From a virus, in the IMG/VR virus record IMGVR_UViG_3300032605_000009, positions 1 to 64,000 of that record: a DNA stretch of 64,000 bases; one strand, given 5' to 3'. The notes under the pieces were generated by a model that saw only the letters and a list, made by a program, of their open reading frames with translations, ran no database searches and was not told the origin of the DNA. Shown one piece after another: positions 12,753 through 33,978 of this stretch; positions within the stretch are counted from its first letter, which is position 1; each line of letters starts with the position of its first letter. The position numbers and the translations under genes were made by a program.

Positions 12753-14324
12753 ATGAGCGAATTTATAGATGAAGAAGAGTTTCTCGAGGACGATGAGATT
12801 CCCGTTGAGGAAGAGCTCGAGGAAGAGCTAGACGAACTCTCTAAGGAGTTTGTCAATAAGCTAATTGATCGAGTTATGCAATTCATGGCGGCATTCGTAG
12901 GCCATGACCTTCACCCTTACCAAGTCCCTCTGGCTAGACGTATTATTGAGTCAGTTATTATTAACGACGGCGAAGAGATAACAGCCCTAGCGGCCCGTCA
13001 GTCTGGTAAGTCAGAGACCATCGCTAATACCGTTGTTACCCTTATGGTTCTTATGCCTCGCCTAGGCAAGATGTATCCAGACCTTCTCGGCAAGTATAAA
13101 GATGGTATCTGGATCGGTATGTTTGCCCCCGTTGAGGGTCAGGTTGAAACCCTATTCGGCCGTGCCGTAAACCGCCTAACATCTGAGCATGCTAATGAGA
13201 TCCTTGCTGACACAGAGATTGACGACAGCATCAGTAAAGTGGCAGGTGTCACACGTCAGATCAAGCTTAAGAACTCTGGCTCTACTCTCACAATGATGAC
13301 CGCTAACCCACGAGCCAAGATTGAATCTAAGTCGTTCCATCTCATTGTTATTGACGAGTGCCAAGAAGCCGATGATTTCGTGGTATCTAAATCTATCTCT
13401 CCTATGTTGGCTTACTACTCAGGAACCATGGTTAAGACTGGTACGCCTACCACGTCTAAGAATAACTTCTACCGTTCTATCCAGCTTAATAAGAGACGCC
13501 AGACAGGCTCACGCGCTAGACAGAATCACTTCGAGTGGGACTGGCGAGATGTTGCTAAGTGCAACCCTAACTACGCTAAGTTCATTAAGCGTGAGATGCT
13601 TCGTATCGGCGAAGACTCTGACGAGTTCCAGATGTCGTACTGCGGCAAGTGGCTCCTAGAACGAGGCATGTTCGTTACCTCTACAGTTATGGACGAGCTT
13701 GGCGACACCTCTCAAGAGGTAGTTAAAGCCTGGCACCGTTCTCCTGTTGTAGTGGGCATTGACCCAGCCCGTAAGATGGACTCCACAGTAGTCACAGTTG
13801 TTTGGGTTGACTGGGATCGCCCTGATGAGTTCGGCCTCTACGACCACCGTATTCTTAACTGGCTTGAGATCCAAGGCGATGACTGGGAAGACCAGTACTT
13901 CCAGATCGTTAACTTCCTTTCTAACTACGACGTCCTAGCAGTAGGTGTAGATGCGAACGGTGTAGGCGATGCCGTAGCCCAGCGTCTAAAGATCCTACTT
14001 CCTAGAGCTGAGGTACATCCAGTAGGCAGCTCCCAGCAGGAGCAATCCAAGCGTTGGAAGCACCTAAAGCAGCTTATAGATAGACGCTTAGTAGGTTGGC
14101 CTTCTCACGCAAAGACTCGTCGTCTACGTACCTGGAAGCGCTTTTACCAGCAGATGACAGACCTAGAGGTTAAGTTCAATGGCCCTAACTTCTCTGCCGC
14201 TGCCCCAGATGAGGCTCACGCCCATGACGACTTTGCTGACTCTTTGGCTATTGCCTGCTCTCTAACTATGGAATTAGCTATGCCTTCAGTAGAGGTAAGC
14301 TCGAATCTATTTTTTAGTAGATAA
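12753..14324 (+). CDS. terL: terminase large subunit
   Basis: Walker A ARQSGKS, Walker B IVIDE, GTP motif, nuclease GIDPA and HDDFADS. Confidence 0.95.
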   Translation: MSEFIDEEEFLEDDEIPVEEELEEELDELSKEFVNKLIDRVMQFMAAFVGHDLHPYQVPLARRIIESVIINDGEEITALAARQSGKSETIANTVVTLMVLMPRLGKMYPDLLGKYKDGIWIGMFAPVEGQVETLFGRAVNRLTSEHANEILADTEIDDSISKVAGVTRQIKLKNSGSTLTMMTANPRAKIESKSFHLIVIDECQEADDFVVSKSISPMLAYYSGTMVKTGTPTTSKNNFYRSIQLNKRRQTGSRARQNHFEWDWRDVAKCNPNYAKFIKREMLRIGEDSDEFQMSYCGKWLLERGMFVTSTVMDELGDTSQEVVKAWHRSPVVVGIDPARKMDSTVVTVVWVDWDRPDEFGLYDHRILNWLEIQGDDWEDQYFQIVNFLSNYDVLAVGVDANGVGDAVAQRLKILLPRAEVHPVGSSQQEQSKRWKHLKQLIDRRLVGWPSHAKTRRLRTWKRFYQQMTDLEVKFNGPNFSAAAPDEAHAHDDFADSLAIACSLTMELAMPSVEVSSNLFFSR

Positions 14325-15241: not shown

Positions 15242-15433
15242 GTGCCAGCACTAAGTAGCAAGCGCACAGCTCCTCTCCTAGTGGACGCTGGCCTTGTGTT
15301 TGGCCGACTCACAGCCACCGCAGCTCTTTACCCATTTACTGAAGACATGAAAAGCATGGTTGCTACCGCCGTACGAGCACCACGTACAGCCCAGGCTCTG
15401 CCTGTTACGGACGGAAAGGAGGTGAGCGCATAA
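15242..15433 (+). pseudogene. probable internally deleted homing-endonuclease remnant
   Basis: Own promoter and SD; GLVFGRLT resembles the GxxFGRLTV N-terminal motif of phage HNH/AP2 endonucleases; no catalytic motif remains. Confidence 0.4.
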
Positions 15434-17149
15434 TGTCAATTGATTTTTCACCACCATCCTACCGCGCAGCATCGTCGGATTTAACAATATCAATCAGCCC
15501 CCTAGGCCTAGTAGAACTCGCAGACGAAGAGTTCGAGGTGCACGGGCCACGCTTGAATAGATACTCGTTAAATTGGGCGATGTATTAGTTACCTAGGTCA
15601 TCACTGGTCGTACCGCCGTCAAACAGGCGAAGCCCAAATGGCACTCAACTATTTTCGTGCCTTCTCAGATTTCATCATTAACTTCACCTTTGGCAAGGGC
15701 GTTAACTTCCGCTCACCTAAGGAAACAGAAGCTATTGTCCCAGACCTTCTAGAGCGTGTATGGGAAGTAGATAACAACAAAGCTACAGTTCTTTGGGAAA
15801 TCGGCCAACAAGGCGGAGTATCTGGAGACTGCTTTATCAAGGTAGCTTACGAAGAAGCATTCGTGGATACCGCAGGCCGCGCTCACCCAGGCCGTGTACG
15901 TATCCTGCCACTTAACGCATCATTCTCTTTCCCAGAGTTCCACCCACATGATCGCGAGCGCCTCATCCGTTTCAAGTTGAAGTACCGCTTCTGGGGCACA
16001 TCACTTGAAGGCACACGTCAAGTATTCACTTACACTGAAATCTTGACAGACGACACGATTGAGGAATACATCAATGACGAGCTCATTGACTCGCGCCCAA
16101 ACCCACTGGGCACTATACCCGTTATACATATTCCTAACATTCGTATTTCTGGTTCTCCTTGGGGTCTCTCAGACTGTGATCAGATTATCAGCATTAACCG
16201 TACGTATAACGAAACGGCGACAGACATTGCGGACATCGTTAACTACCACGCAGCGCCAGTTACAGTTATTATCGGCGCTAAGGCGGCGCAGCTAGAAAAA
16301 GGCGCCAACAAGGTATGGGGTGGCTTGCCTAAGGATGCTCGTGTAGAAAACCTTGAAGGCGGCGGCTCTGGCCTAAAGCTTGGTCTTGAGTTCCTTGAGC
16401 TAATGAAGAAGGCCATGCACGAAATGGTCGGCGTACCTGAGACTGCTCTTGGTCAGGCTATGCCAGTATCTAACACATCAGGTGTTGCTCTTAGCATTAT
16501 GTTCCAGCCTCTTATGGCTCGTTACCACCAAAAGATTATTCAATACGCTCACGGCCTAGAGCGCGTCAATGAGCTTATCCTTCTTAACCTTGCTGTTAAG
16601 GAGCCTGAGGTATTTACCTGGGATCCTAACTCAAGCACAACGCCTCTAAAGCCTGGTCAGCTTTCACAGCTAGATCCTAATGACCCTATTACTTTCCGCT
16701 CTTATGTTCACTTCCCACCTCCGCTACCACTAGACAAGCTCATCGTTCTGAACGAGATTCAGACCAAGATGTCCCTTGGCTTGGAGTCAAAGGAAGGCGC
16801 TTTGCGCCTATTGGGCGAAGAGTTCCCTGCTGAGAAGCTCACCGAGATCCGTCAAGAACTCATGGATGACGCTAAGGCTGATGGTGCTCTTAAGCTCCTA
16901 CAGACCGAAATCAACAATGAAATTGCTTCCCTTACAGGAATGCTCCCTGCAGAAGGTGGTATGGCTGAGCCTCTACCTACTGGTCCAGAAGGAGAACCTG
17001 CAGTCCCTCAAGGCGGACCAACTCCGATCCTTGATGAGGCAACCATGCTGAACACAGCAGGTGAGGCGGCTCTACGTAACCGCCTAGTTACAGAAGCTTA
17101 CGGCACCCAGATCCCACAGAGAAGGACGCCGCAAGACTACGAGAAGTAA
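15433..17149 (+). CDS. portal protein (SPP1 gp6-like), interrupted by a 7-nt coding gap at 15586..15592
   Basis: Near-perfect SD AAGGAGGTGA before ATG 15433; 51 codons then TAG; the +1 frame resumes YLGHHW.. into the 15638..17149 portal ORF (IPVIHIPN, SGVALSI); located between terminase and scaffold. Confidence 0.85.
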
Positions 17150-19236: not shown

Positions 19237-19800
19237 ATGGCAGTAAAAGAAGGATGTCCGCAAGGACATAAATATACAGAAGAAAACTCTTACATAGATA
19301 AGAACGGTTATACCCACTGCAGAACTTGTCGCTTAGAGCGAATGAGAGAGCGCAGAAAGGATAACTTAAGGGTTGGACGTGGCGTTAATAACGCCTCTAA
19401 GACTGAGTGCCCTAAAGGTCACCCCTATGATGAAGAGAACACAATTACATATGTAAAGCCTAACGGTAGAACTAGAAGATGTTGCCGTGAGTGTGCCAGA
19501 GTAAACATGATTACCCAGAACGTTAAACGTTATGGAATAACCAAACCAGACTTCGAAGCACTAGTAGCATCACAAGATTCTAGATGTGCCATATGCAAAG
19601 GAAAGTTCTGGGATGAGGTCTCCTCTCCCCATATAGACCACGACCACACCTGCTGTAATGAGCAAATGAGGTCATGTGGCAAATGTATAAGAGGACTCCT
19701 ATGCAGAGGCTGTAACCAAGTTCTTGGCTGTGCCAAGGACGACATCGAGACCTTAAAGGCCGCGATAAAGTACTTACGGTCAGGAACTCTGACTTTTTAA
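19237..19800 (+). CDS. free-standing endonuclease VII-family homing endonuclease
   Basis: Two CPxGHxYxEEN..CRxC modules; CAIC..HIDHDH..IRGLLCRGCN; foreign AGA/ATA-rich codons. Confidence 0.88.
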   Translation: MAVKEGCPQGHKYTEENSYIDKNGYTHCRTCRLERMRERRKDNLRVGRGVNNASKTECPKGHPYDEENTITYVKPNGRTRRCCRECARVNMITQNVKRYGITKPDFEALVASQDSRCAICKGKFWDEVSSPHIDHDHTCCNEQMRSCGKCIRGLLCRGCNQVLGCAKDDIETLKAAIKYLRSGTLTF

Positions 19801-32448: not shown

Positions 32449-33978
32449 ATGGCAGTTTATCAACAGCCAGGCGTATACGTTCAAGAAGTCTTGAGCGCAG
32501 TACCGCCTACAGTTGGAGCCTCGACAGCCGCTATAGGAGCATTCCTAGGAGCTATCAACCAGGGTCCTCTAACACCTACAGTAGTAACCAAGTGGTCTGA
32601 TTTCGTTAACCTCTACGGAGGATTTGTTGGCGATGCTACAGACAACCTACGTCTTGCAGTCAAGTCTTTCCTAGTAGACAACAATGGTGGAGCTTGTGCA
32701 GTCCAGCGTGTACTAGGTACTGGAACAGCTACATCTACCCAGTCTTTCTATGACAGCTCAGGAACTGGCGGAACAGCTGGTTCAGCAATCTCTATCGTTA
32801 TCTCTGCAGCCAACCCAGGCGCATGGGGCAACAAGATCTATGTAGACATCGTAAAGACAACAGCTACAGCTGCAACCTTTACTCTTGTTGTTCACGTAGG
32901 CGATGGCACATCCTCAACAATCGTTGAGACATGGCCTAACCTATCTATGTCATCAACAGACCCACGCTACGTAGTTAACTTTGTTAACAGCAACTCAAAG
33001 TATGTAGTCGTTTCTCTTCCTTTGTCAAATGGTACAACAGCTTCTTCACCAGCTAACGTCCCTGTGTCACAAACCGCACAGCCATTGGCTTCTGGTGTAG
33101 ACGCTACAGGTGGACAAACAGCTACTTCTGTTGCTGGAGCTGTAAACAGCTTTGACACCATCACTCAGACCTTGGTGCTTAACGCCCCAGGAATTACTGA
33201 TGCTACAAACGTAAATACAATCTTGGCATACGCAGCTACACGTGGAGACGTGTTCGTAGTCATCGACCCTATCGCTGACACAGTAGCTAACCAACTAACC
33301 TTGGCTGCTTCTTACACCTCAACCTCTTACGGCGCTGTGTACTACCCACAGATCACAGTTGCTGATCCAACATCTTCTGCCCCAGGCGTAGTGCGCACGA
33401 TCAACCCTGGTGGAGCTGTTGTAGCTCAGTACCTTGTAACAGACCACGTAACTGGGCCATTCAAGGCTCCAGCTGGTATCAAGACACGTATTGGTGGAGC
33501 TGTATCAGTTGCAGCTTTGACCAACACTAACTTGGCTTCAATGAACAGCGCTGCTGCCCCTGTTAACGCAATTCGTTTCGTTCCAGGCTCAGGCATCGTA
33601 ATCATGGGCGCTCGTACCCTACAACCAGGGTACTCAACAATGTACGTGCCCGTCCGTCGTTCTCTTCAATACATTGAAAAGGCGCTTACAAACCTTACAC
33701 AGTTTGCAATCTTTGAGCCAAACGATCAACGTCTATGGCGTCAACTATCAGCAACTGTAGGTAACTTCCTCACAGACTACTGGCGTCAAGGTGGTTTGAG
33801 CGGTTCAACACCAGCTCAAGCTTTCTACGCTGTCTGCGATAGCACAAACAACACATCAGTAACCATCAACAATGGTGAGCTTCACATTGATGTGGGTGTT
33901 GCCCTAGAACGTCCAGCAGAGTTCGTCGTAATTCGTATTTCACAATACGACGGCGGCACAACAGTAACCACAGCATAA
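32449..33978 (+). CDS. contractile tail sheath protein
   Basis: PGVYVQE, YGAVYYP, KAPAG, GARTL, YVPVRR, FEPND, PAEFV. Confidence 0.95.
   Translation: MAVYQQPGVYVQEVLSAVPPTVGASTAAIGAFLGAINQGPLTPTVVTKWSDFVNLYGGFVGDATDNLRLAVKSFLVDNNGGACAVQRVLGTGTATSTQSFYDSSGTGGTAGSAISIVISAANPGAWGNKIYVDIVKTTATAATFTLVVHVGDGTSSTIVETWPNLSMSSTDPRYVVNFVNSNSKYVVVSLPLSNGTTASSPANVPVSQTAQPLASGVDATGGQTATSVAGAVNSFDTITQTLVLNAPGITDATNVNTILAYAATRGDVFVVIDPIADTVANQLTLAASYTSTSYGAVYYPQITVADPTSSAPGVVRTINPGGAVVAQYLVTDHVTGPFKAPAGIKTRIGGAVSVAALTNTNLASMNSAAAPVNAIRFVPGSGIVIMGARTLQPGYSTMYVPVRRSLQYIEKALTNLTQFAIFEPNDQRLWRQLSATVGNFLTDYWRQGGLSGSTPAQAFYAVCDSTNNTSVTINNGELHIDVGVALERPAEFVVIRISQYDGGTTVTTA

Follow-up and report, generated by a model that had tools for sequence, protein, structure and literature searches.

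A seven-nucleotide coding gap in a phage portal gene, its candidate translational bypass and its link to homing endonucleases

The portal gene of an uncultured lake-water phage carries, directly after its 51st codon, a 7-nt insert (TAG-T-TAC) that breaks the reading frame and that is absent from intact relatives. The gene lies in the first 64 kb (hereafter, the window, taken at its full length of 64,000 nt) of a 77.5-kb IMG/VR viral contig, IMGVR_UViG_3300032605_000009, with a G+C content of ~48% and a completeness estimate of 81%. Full-length portal is probably made by a short-range translational bypass over the 7 nt, a reading drawn from sequence comparison and already proposed in the initial annotation of this DNA. 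A second reading is added here, namely that the gap is, as judged from the surrounding and related sequences, a mark left by a homing-endonuclease cassette that has since decayed, and that it would be present in the window because such a cassette brought it.

In frame 1, the portal gene begins at ATG 15433, which stands 5 nt downstream of a Shine-Dalgarno (SD) sequence, AAGGAGGTGA, and proceeds for 51 codons until it meets ATG TAT TAG; direct reading bears out each of these elements as they were initially annotated. Frame 2 (+1) is open from 15572 onward, and within it TAC 15590 is followed by CTA GGT CAT CAC TGG and stands in frame with ATG 15638, 16 codons further on, from which a 503-aa open reading frame (ORF) extends to 17149; this continuity, too, is as initially described. 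Joining 15433–15585 to 15593–17149, that is, removing the 7 nt, gives a 569-aa portal that reads NWAMYLGHHW across the junction, just as the initial annotation had given for related portals and as intact relatives do read. The joined protein matches the Pfam family SPP1_portal (PF05133) with E = 1e-18 and a score of 68 bits (cut-off, 25.5); the match spans profile positions 14–410 of 416, whereas for the 503-aa ORF without the 51 codons it starts at position 44. Because the joined protein exceeds the Pfam gathering score over most of the profile, it is assigned to the SPP1 Gp6-like portals.

Portal gaps in the window and across the family

The portals of the Streptomyces phages Alone3, GiJojo, and BRock, which are 57% identical to that of the window, read ...YWAWYLGHHW... 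at the corresponding segment and are gap-free. Similarly, 79 of 80 closer IMG/VR relatives (76–91% identity) possess one continuous portal ORF, as far as each contig extends, and those read in this region show ...NWAMYLGHHW... at the site, which equals the window sequence minus 15586–15592; one of the 80 (L071) bears another 7-nt gap at codon 35, GAA TAG T GAA. The insert of the window is absent from 182 intact relatives, whose consensus is NWAMYLGHHW, and residues 10–99 contain zero insertions or deletions (indels) among these 182 sequences. Cultured phages contribute only five matches, all of them BRock-like Streptomyces phages and all intact in that collection. Homologous portals lacking the first 51 residues, which the initial annotation regarded as a finding that would speak against bypass, were not what emerged; the N-termini of intact portals align with the 51 codons residue by residue. 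A dispensable and decaying N-terminus was considered for the first 68 residues and ruled out, for they form the most conserved part of the protein, with dN (the nonsynonymous substitution rate) ~0 in gapped genes, and residues 22–44 are nearly invariant.

The 7-nt insert is real. Logan contigs from four lake-water runs (X13, X15, X17, and X10) cover 15300–15700 with 0 gaps, and one of them has C>T at 15380, so that this run contig is not the same assembly as the window. Among the sequencing runs listed as containing the stretch, none was an RNA run. Moreover, the exact gap of the window recurs in a relative from a separate data set, L213. Throughout the whole 77.5-kb contig, the portal site is the single place at which a stop plus 1 nt, flanked by synonymous codons, joins long ORFs (81 + 519 codons). 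A look-alike at 33386 (GCG TAG T GCG) was rejected as a coincidental, out-of-frame match within the gene for a 509-aa protein.

Gapped genes are under purifying selection on both flanks. In four pairs that share a gap (the window with L213, the window with L225, L139 with L199, and L071 with L244), dS (the synonymous rate) is 0.4–2.3 and dN/dS is 0.03–0.08 on both sides, with 0–1 nonsynonymous and 9–12 synonymous differences upstream of the gap; for the first 51 codons of the window portal compared with L213 and L225, 12 synonymous and 0–1 nonsynonymous differences were counted. Such ratios on both flanks indicate that the two portal halves have been translated and constrained while the gap was retained.

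The insert of the window is one member of a family-wide series. IMG/VR was scanned with spacing patterns in two complete scans, which took the place of a looser initial pattern whose listed matches were mostly intact genes with a second TGGGC, and the matches were aligned by dynamic programming, with nucleotide gaps allowed, to a position-specific profile of the 182 intact genes. As a result, 82 gaps of 48 types were recovered from ~70 contigs, at 16 codon positions within residues 33–76. Gap lengths are 4 nt (24 gaps), 7 nt (22), 9 nt (13), 6 nt (7), 8 nt (6), 10 nt (4), 11 nt (3), 5 nt (2), and 1 nt (1), covering all three frame classes (4/7/10, 5/8/11, and 6/9 nt); the 48th type is the single inserted base, hence the codon tallies that follow are out of 47. 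Read in the upstream frame, the gap opens with a stop in 32 of 47 types, with TTA in 10, and with AGA (2), ATA, CTA, or AAA in the others. In 26 of 47 types, the take-off codon and the final triplet of the gap code for one amino acid, and in 16 more this triplet agrees with the take-off codon at positions 2–3, which amounts to a landing triplet capable of re-pairing in 42 of 47 types against 6.2 expected, a number that 0 of 20,000 resamplings reached. Among the 14 synonymous types, a U-ending take-off codon is paired with a C-ending landing codon in 10 and the opposite direction is seen in 1, while at least one same-amino-acid landing is found at 11 of the 16 sites. The initial annotation had asked for the same or variant gaps to be looked for in other contigs, always with matched codons around a stop; the same and variant gaps are present in relatives, with the tallies just given for stops and re-pairing triplets.

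The in-frame gaps of 6 and 9 nt contain stops (e.g., GGT TGA ATA GGT and TGG TAG TGG), and the 8-nt gaps include GAA TAG CT GAA and TCT TAG CG TCC. Variants also occur at Tyr51 itself, where TAG-G-TAC is present in 9 contigs, TGA-A-TAC in 2, and one of the 4-nt forms TGAC, TAAC, and TTAC in further contigs. With the 51-aa fragment as query, the protein database gave 113 clusters of 28–90-aa "hypothetical proteins" corresponding to portal N-termini, many of them encoded on 35–120 kb contigs, and most of these proteins end cleanly within conserved sequence; judged by sequence, the clusters are portal N-terminal fragments truncated by gaps and represent a systematic annotation artefact.

Several further irregularities were met in portal genes. 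Two high-G+C contigs, L238 (~12597) and L235 (~6425, minus strand), carry a further 7-nt gap well outside the 5′ hot spot, at portal residue ~174. It reads CGA [TTACCGC] CTC/TTG; the matched codons are those for Arg, and TTA occupies the A site. In otherwise intact portals, an in-frame TAG with no extra bases replaces a conserved Tyr in L041 (~3013) and probably a Trp in L232 (position 9817, reverse strand), and each of these TAGs might reflect a nonsense allele, a site of readthrough, or an error. A single-base deletion at portal residue ~82 of L262 (~5025; GTA TT- GGA) is accompanied by neither a stop nor a matched codon and, in contrast to the other gaps, resembles a common frameshift or an error of sequencing. 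Finally, a scan of genome contigs gave mostly chance matches, with gapped portals confirmed only in L274 (the chromosome of Streptomyces sp. AD2-2) and L283 (a contig of Saccharothrix sp. ST-888), each of which bears two TTA-led portal gaps, for instance CGA [TTACGT] CTG and CAC [TTACCAC] TGG in L274. Both come from cultured actinobacteria and are possible experimental systems for gaps of the TTA type.

Homing endonucleases and the probable origin of the gap

The ORF directly upstream of the portal gene is a nuclease remnant. In a BLASTP comparison with the 234-aa HNH ORF of L213 (873–1574, minus strand), which ends at the portal start and has its Pfam HNH domain at residues 157–200, the window ORF at 15242–15430 matches only residues 32–53 and 201–234, and a tblastx comparison of the two loci places the loss from the nuclease gene at ~440 nt. 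Pfam gave no match on the window ORF, from which the HNH (PF01844) catalytic motif is absent. Because only the two ends of the L213 ORF are kept and residues 157–200 are lost, the window ORF is regarded as a remnant and not as an active member. The end of the nuclease ORF, ...DGEEVSA, adjoins the portal start in the window and in L213 alike.

Across the family, gaps and nuclease genes are found together. Of 57 gapped loci with enough upstream sequence, 32 have an HNH or endonuclease VII (EndoVII) ORF, homologous to those of L228 and L241, on the same strand and no more than 400 nt before the portal start, whereas none of 165 intact loci does (Fisher p = 2e-23). Furthermore, the type of nuclease follows the position of the gap, with EndoVII-like ORFs mainly at codons 47–50 and HNH groups at 34–35 and 51–52. 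L228 (HNH domain) and L241 (Endonuclease_7 domain) each show a nuclease ORF in front of a gapped portal. As a separate observation, the nuclease ORFs of these two loci (L228, 3058–3902; L241, 3200–3851) open with duplicated portal codons 1–32 and are followed by another copy of the 5′ end of the portal gene, which bears the gap; the nuclease in this arrangement seems to borrow the start signals of the portal.

The portal gene of the window is a mosaic whose identity changes at the gap. Over portal codons 10–51, its nucleotide identity is 86–93% to L213, L225, L206, and L212 but 72–74% to the intact L005, which is the closest intact backbone to the window portal, whereas past residue ~80 the identity to L005 rises to 78–92% (76% in the last window of the comparison) and that to the cassette carriers is ~61–86%. 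The genes flanking the portal are only 70% identical to those of L213. When a tree is drawn for the portal backbone, from residue 85 onward, 51 of its 196 tips are gapped, at least 33 state changes are needed, and the nearest neighbors of the window are intact portals. Taken together, the switch of identity at the gap and the scattering of gapped tips point to a homing cassette with a co-conversion tract that ends at the gap. The pattern is indirect evidence for horizontal spread with co-conversion of flanking sequence.

Two sets of observations concern other essential genes of related contigs. The tblastn matches to the major capsid gene in L092, L102, L126, L149, L155, and L163, and those to the large terminase gene in L113 and L139, fall into pieces ~220–1050 nt apart, which suggests introns, inteins, or inserted nuclease genes.

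The features of the locus are compiled in Table 1. The portal gene is accompanied by a large terminase gene (12753–14324), two small conserved ORFs, a scaffold-like ORF, and the gene for the major capsid protein, and the genes of the contig other than the portal gene are all intact where they were checked. At 19237–19800 (+), Pfam assigns a Recombination endonuclease VII domain (19468–19776; E = 2e-20) to a 187-aa ORF that stands free, with the major capsid gene on one side and the following gene on the other. These neighbors look intact, and the ORF may be a second homing-type nuclease of the phage. No tRNA gene was found within the window, so nothing there points to a phage-encoded suppressor or quadruplet-reading tRNA, and a sequence search for a solved structure of the portal found none.

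Table 1. Coordinates of the gapped portal gene and of the putative cassette in the window
Feature	Position	Strand	Remarks
HNH homing-endonuclease remnant, 63 codons + TAA	15242–15433	+	TAA overlaps the portal ATG as TAATG; catalytic core deleted
Putative acquired cassette (co-conversion tract)	15242–15592	+	Nuclease remnant, recoded portal codons 1–51, and gap
Shine-Dalgarno sequence of the portal gene, AAGGAGGTGA	15418–15427	+	Within the 3′ end of the nuclease remnant; direct reading
Portal ORF1, codons 1–51	15433–15585	+	Ends with take-off codon TAT (15583–15585); aligns residue by residue with intact portal N-termini
7-nt coding gap, TAG-T-TAC	15586–15592	+	TAG 15586–15588 (A site), spacer T 15589, landing TAC 15590–15592
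Portal ORF2, 518 codons + stop	15593–17149	+	Decoding would resume at CTA 15593, in the +1 frame

Crossing the gap: the proposed hop and its rivals

The proposed course of events starts with a cassette consisting of an HNH gene directly before the portal start, synonymously recoded portal codons 1–51, and the short insert; the nuclease gene would then have lost its catalytic core in the window phage, while the insert stayed. During translation, peptidyl-tRNA-Tyr would be held on UAU in the P site with UAG in the A site; the tRNA would release, the mRNA would slide by 7 nt, the tRNA would re-pair at UAC, and decoding would restart at CUA. Such a hop predicts the junction peptide YSLNWAMYLGHHWSYR. 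The advantage to the cassette probably lies in immunity, by analogy with T4 gene 60 and MobA: the insert would break the recognition site of the nuclease within the highly conserved 5′ region of the portal gene, and carriers would be immune to their own nuclease. The hop from UAU over UAG to UAC, as initially proposed, is favored by the colinearity with intact portals, by the Tyr51 variants, and by gap lengths outside the +1 class elsewhere in the family. Since the gaps fall into all three frame classes, one hop mechanism can take the place of +1 shifting, −1 shifting, and readthrough. On a wider scale, and with somewhat less assurance than for the window itself, natural stop-hops are likely to be a common and evolvable device: across a large family of actinophage-like phages, homing endonucleases would mark their carriers by untranslatable 4–11 nt inserts at many sites of the most conserved portal region, and ordinary ribosomes would cross them with no more than a re-pairing triplet and a stop or rare codon, needing none of the elaborate T4 gene 60 signals.

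A number of results weigh against these readings. The hop, its efficiency, and the immunity function are inferred, for an uncultured phage, from sequence comparison. The weak fold that the initial annotation had drawn across the site does not hold up, as RNA structure around the window gap is not significant (z = −0.81 over 101 nt; z = −0.53 locally), and the family mean of −0.25, compared with −0.31 for intact genes, lends no support to a take-off stem-loop. No SD-like or purine-rich element exists within the gap TAGTTAC, and no Rfam match was obtained at the window site. The nascent peptide is equally conserved in intact genes and does not discriminate as a bypass signal, though the peptide of residues 22–44 could act in the exit tunnel. 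Regarding the census, 5 gap types have no re-pairing landing triplet, the 4-nt types fit a +1 shift with one extra residue equally well, and matched flanking codons could in part stem from the origin of the inserts, as micro-duplications at a repaired cut, and not from selection for re-pairing. The gap types partly share ancestry and the contigs were chosen by spacing, with the consequence that the p-values overstate independence. Moreover, an intact nuclease gene was not detected upstream of 25 gapped loci, that of the window included, and the reality of the insert was checked on contigs, which can hide a minor gap-less allele.

Among the alternatives to bypass, a +1 frameshift at UAU-UAG-U would read AGU-UAC and lengthen the portal to 571 aa by an added Ser-Tyr (...AMYSYLGHHW...). 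The downstream frame is indeed +1, A-site stops are classic stimulators of such shifts, and 50 of the 82 gaps belong to the 4/7/10-nt class, in which a +1 shift explains 4-nt types such as TAT[TGAC] equally well. However, peptidyl-tRNA-Tyr has no re-pairing in the +1 frame (UAU to AUU), the SD distance typical of RF2 is unoccupied, since the upstream UGGGCGAUG is not an SD, and the matched landing codon is left unexplained. The shift would also place two extra residues in a segment that is indel-free across the 182 intact relatives, and it cannot repair the 5-, 6-, 8-, 9-, and 11-nt gaps with matched codons in relatives. A +1 shift is accordingly held to be unlikely at the window site.

A split portal, in which a 51-aa N-terminal fragment and a separate C-terminal fragment (from ATG 15638 or by re-initiation) would assemble non-covalently, is improbable. 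Homing endonucleases are known to split genes into halves that assemble, as in the MobA and MobE cases, and both the purifying selection on the two halves and the presence of ATG 15638 are compatible with such an arrangement. Nevertheless, the resume frame contains no start codon (ATG, GTG, or TTG) between 15572 and 15638, ATG 15638 is, on direct reading, without a convincing SD upstream (as initially stated), and Met occupies its position in only 43 of 182 sequences. The 16 codons from the gap to 15638 are conserved in frame, and neither the exact colinearity nor the matched codons in 42 of 47 types would be explained by two separate products.

Very little credence is due to the view that no full-length portal is made and that the insert is an error of assembly, a minor allele, or a lethal mutation carried by a defective genome. 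The incompleteness of this metagenome contig and the capacity of contigs to hide rare variants leave room for it, but the insert is found without any indel in contigs of four runs from different samples, and the same gap stands in L213 amid 12 synonymous changes; the low dN/dS, a combination of stop and matched codon far beyond chance, and the intact state of the other checked genes speak against it as well. Excision of the 7 nt from the mRNA by an editing or cut-and-rejoin step of a kind not known before, the least credible of the four, has nothing direct in its favor, although it would also yield exact colinearity, and it is countered by a length far below that of any known self-splicing element, by the lack of an Rfam match and of conserved structure, and by its failure to explain why gaps open with stops or rare codons of the upstream frame.

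Comparison with known systems

To our knowledge, T4 gene 60 is the one proven case of translational bypass in a phage, with the terminase gene of phiHau3 as a partly tested second. The bypass proposed for the window portal shares several features with T4 gene 60 and MobA: an untranslated insert in an essential conserved gene, an HNH gene just upstream, a stop or hungry codon after the take-off codon, matched take-off and landing codons, and a nuclease that decays while the bypass is retained. In that system, take-off before a stop or hungry codon, a landing codon that matches, protection from self-cleavage by the insert, and frequent decay of the nuclease with the bypass kept have all been described (bioRxiv 10.1101/2022.08.31.505936). 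The differences are equally plain, as the gap measures 7 nt in the window (4–11 nt in the family) compared with 50 nt in T4, and as neither a take-off stem-loop nor an internal SD nor a nascent-peptide signal is shown here. Furthermore, the gene encodes a portal and not a topoisomerase, its coding sequence has not been broken up into two ORFs with extra tails, the insertion sites are many instead of one, and the HNH and EndoVII-like nucleases belong to unrelated lineages.

The phiHau3 precedent, which the initial annotation had cited, is real: its terminase gene contains two 10-nt gaps led by UUA, the bypass junction peptide was seen by mass spectrometry in Escherichia coli, and bypass was argued over frameshifting from the conservation of the junction (PMC10732093). 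In the related prophages StrepC.1 and that of S. catenulae, the gap measures 7 nt, and homing endonucleases are not mentioned in that paper (PMC10732093). Like the portal family, the phiHau3 type involves frame-breaking inserts of 7–10 nt in an essential packaging gene of actinophages, with colinear flanks and a slow codon in the A site, and 10 portal gap types start with TTA, as do the gaps of L274 and L283. In contrast, the window gap opens with UAG instead of UUA, which places it outside the UUA-triggered class and implies no regulation of the bldA type; the gene is that of the portal and not the terminase, and the link to nucleases is strong here.

The proposed hop also resembles the synthetic stop-hops of E. 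coli (Weiss et al. 1987), in which matched codons lie on either side of a stop and which, as cited in a later review, were engineered and of low efficiency (PMC5009743). As in those constructs, peptidyl-tRNA in the portal family would re-pair a few bases downstream, and L227 (TGG TAG TGG) has their exact form, whereas the hop of the window spans 7 nt and changes the frame. According to the 2016 review, a natural in-frame stop-hop is not known (PMC5009743). The prfB (RF2) type of +1 frameshift resembles the window in its A-site stop and its continuation in the +1 frame but differs in that the window has neither a +1 re-pairing codon nor an upstream SD, and in that colinearity calls for a 7-nt and not a 1-nt shift. 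Many short inserts in coding sequence that ribosomes skip, the "byp" elements, are described for the mitochondria of Magnusiomyces capitatus, as cited in two sources (PMC10732093, PMC5009743). Compared with the portal gaps, the byp blocks are longer, at 27–55 nt, mitochondrial, and not known to be tied to endonuclease genes.

Literature searches found no description of portal gaps. Set against the systems above, what appears to be new is a putative ultra-short stop-hop in a portal gene, at many sites and in connection with two nuclease families. The family forms a natural series of very short gaps within one essential gene, tied to selfish nucleases. If the reading is true, ribosomes can bypass without special RNA structures, homing elements have repeatedly exploited bypass as an immunity mark, and gene callers systematically mis-annotate such genes; at the same time, dozens of natural variants would be available for deriving the minimal rules of bypass for take-off, A-site, and landing codons.

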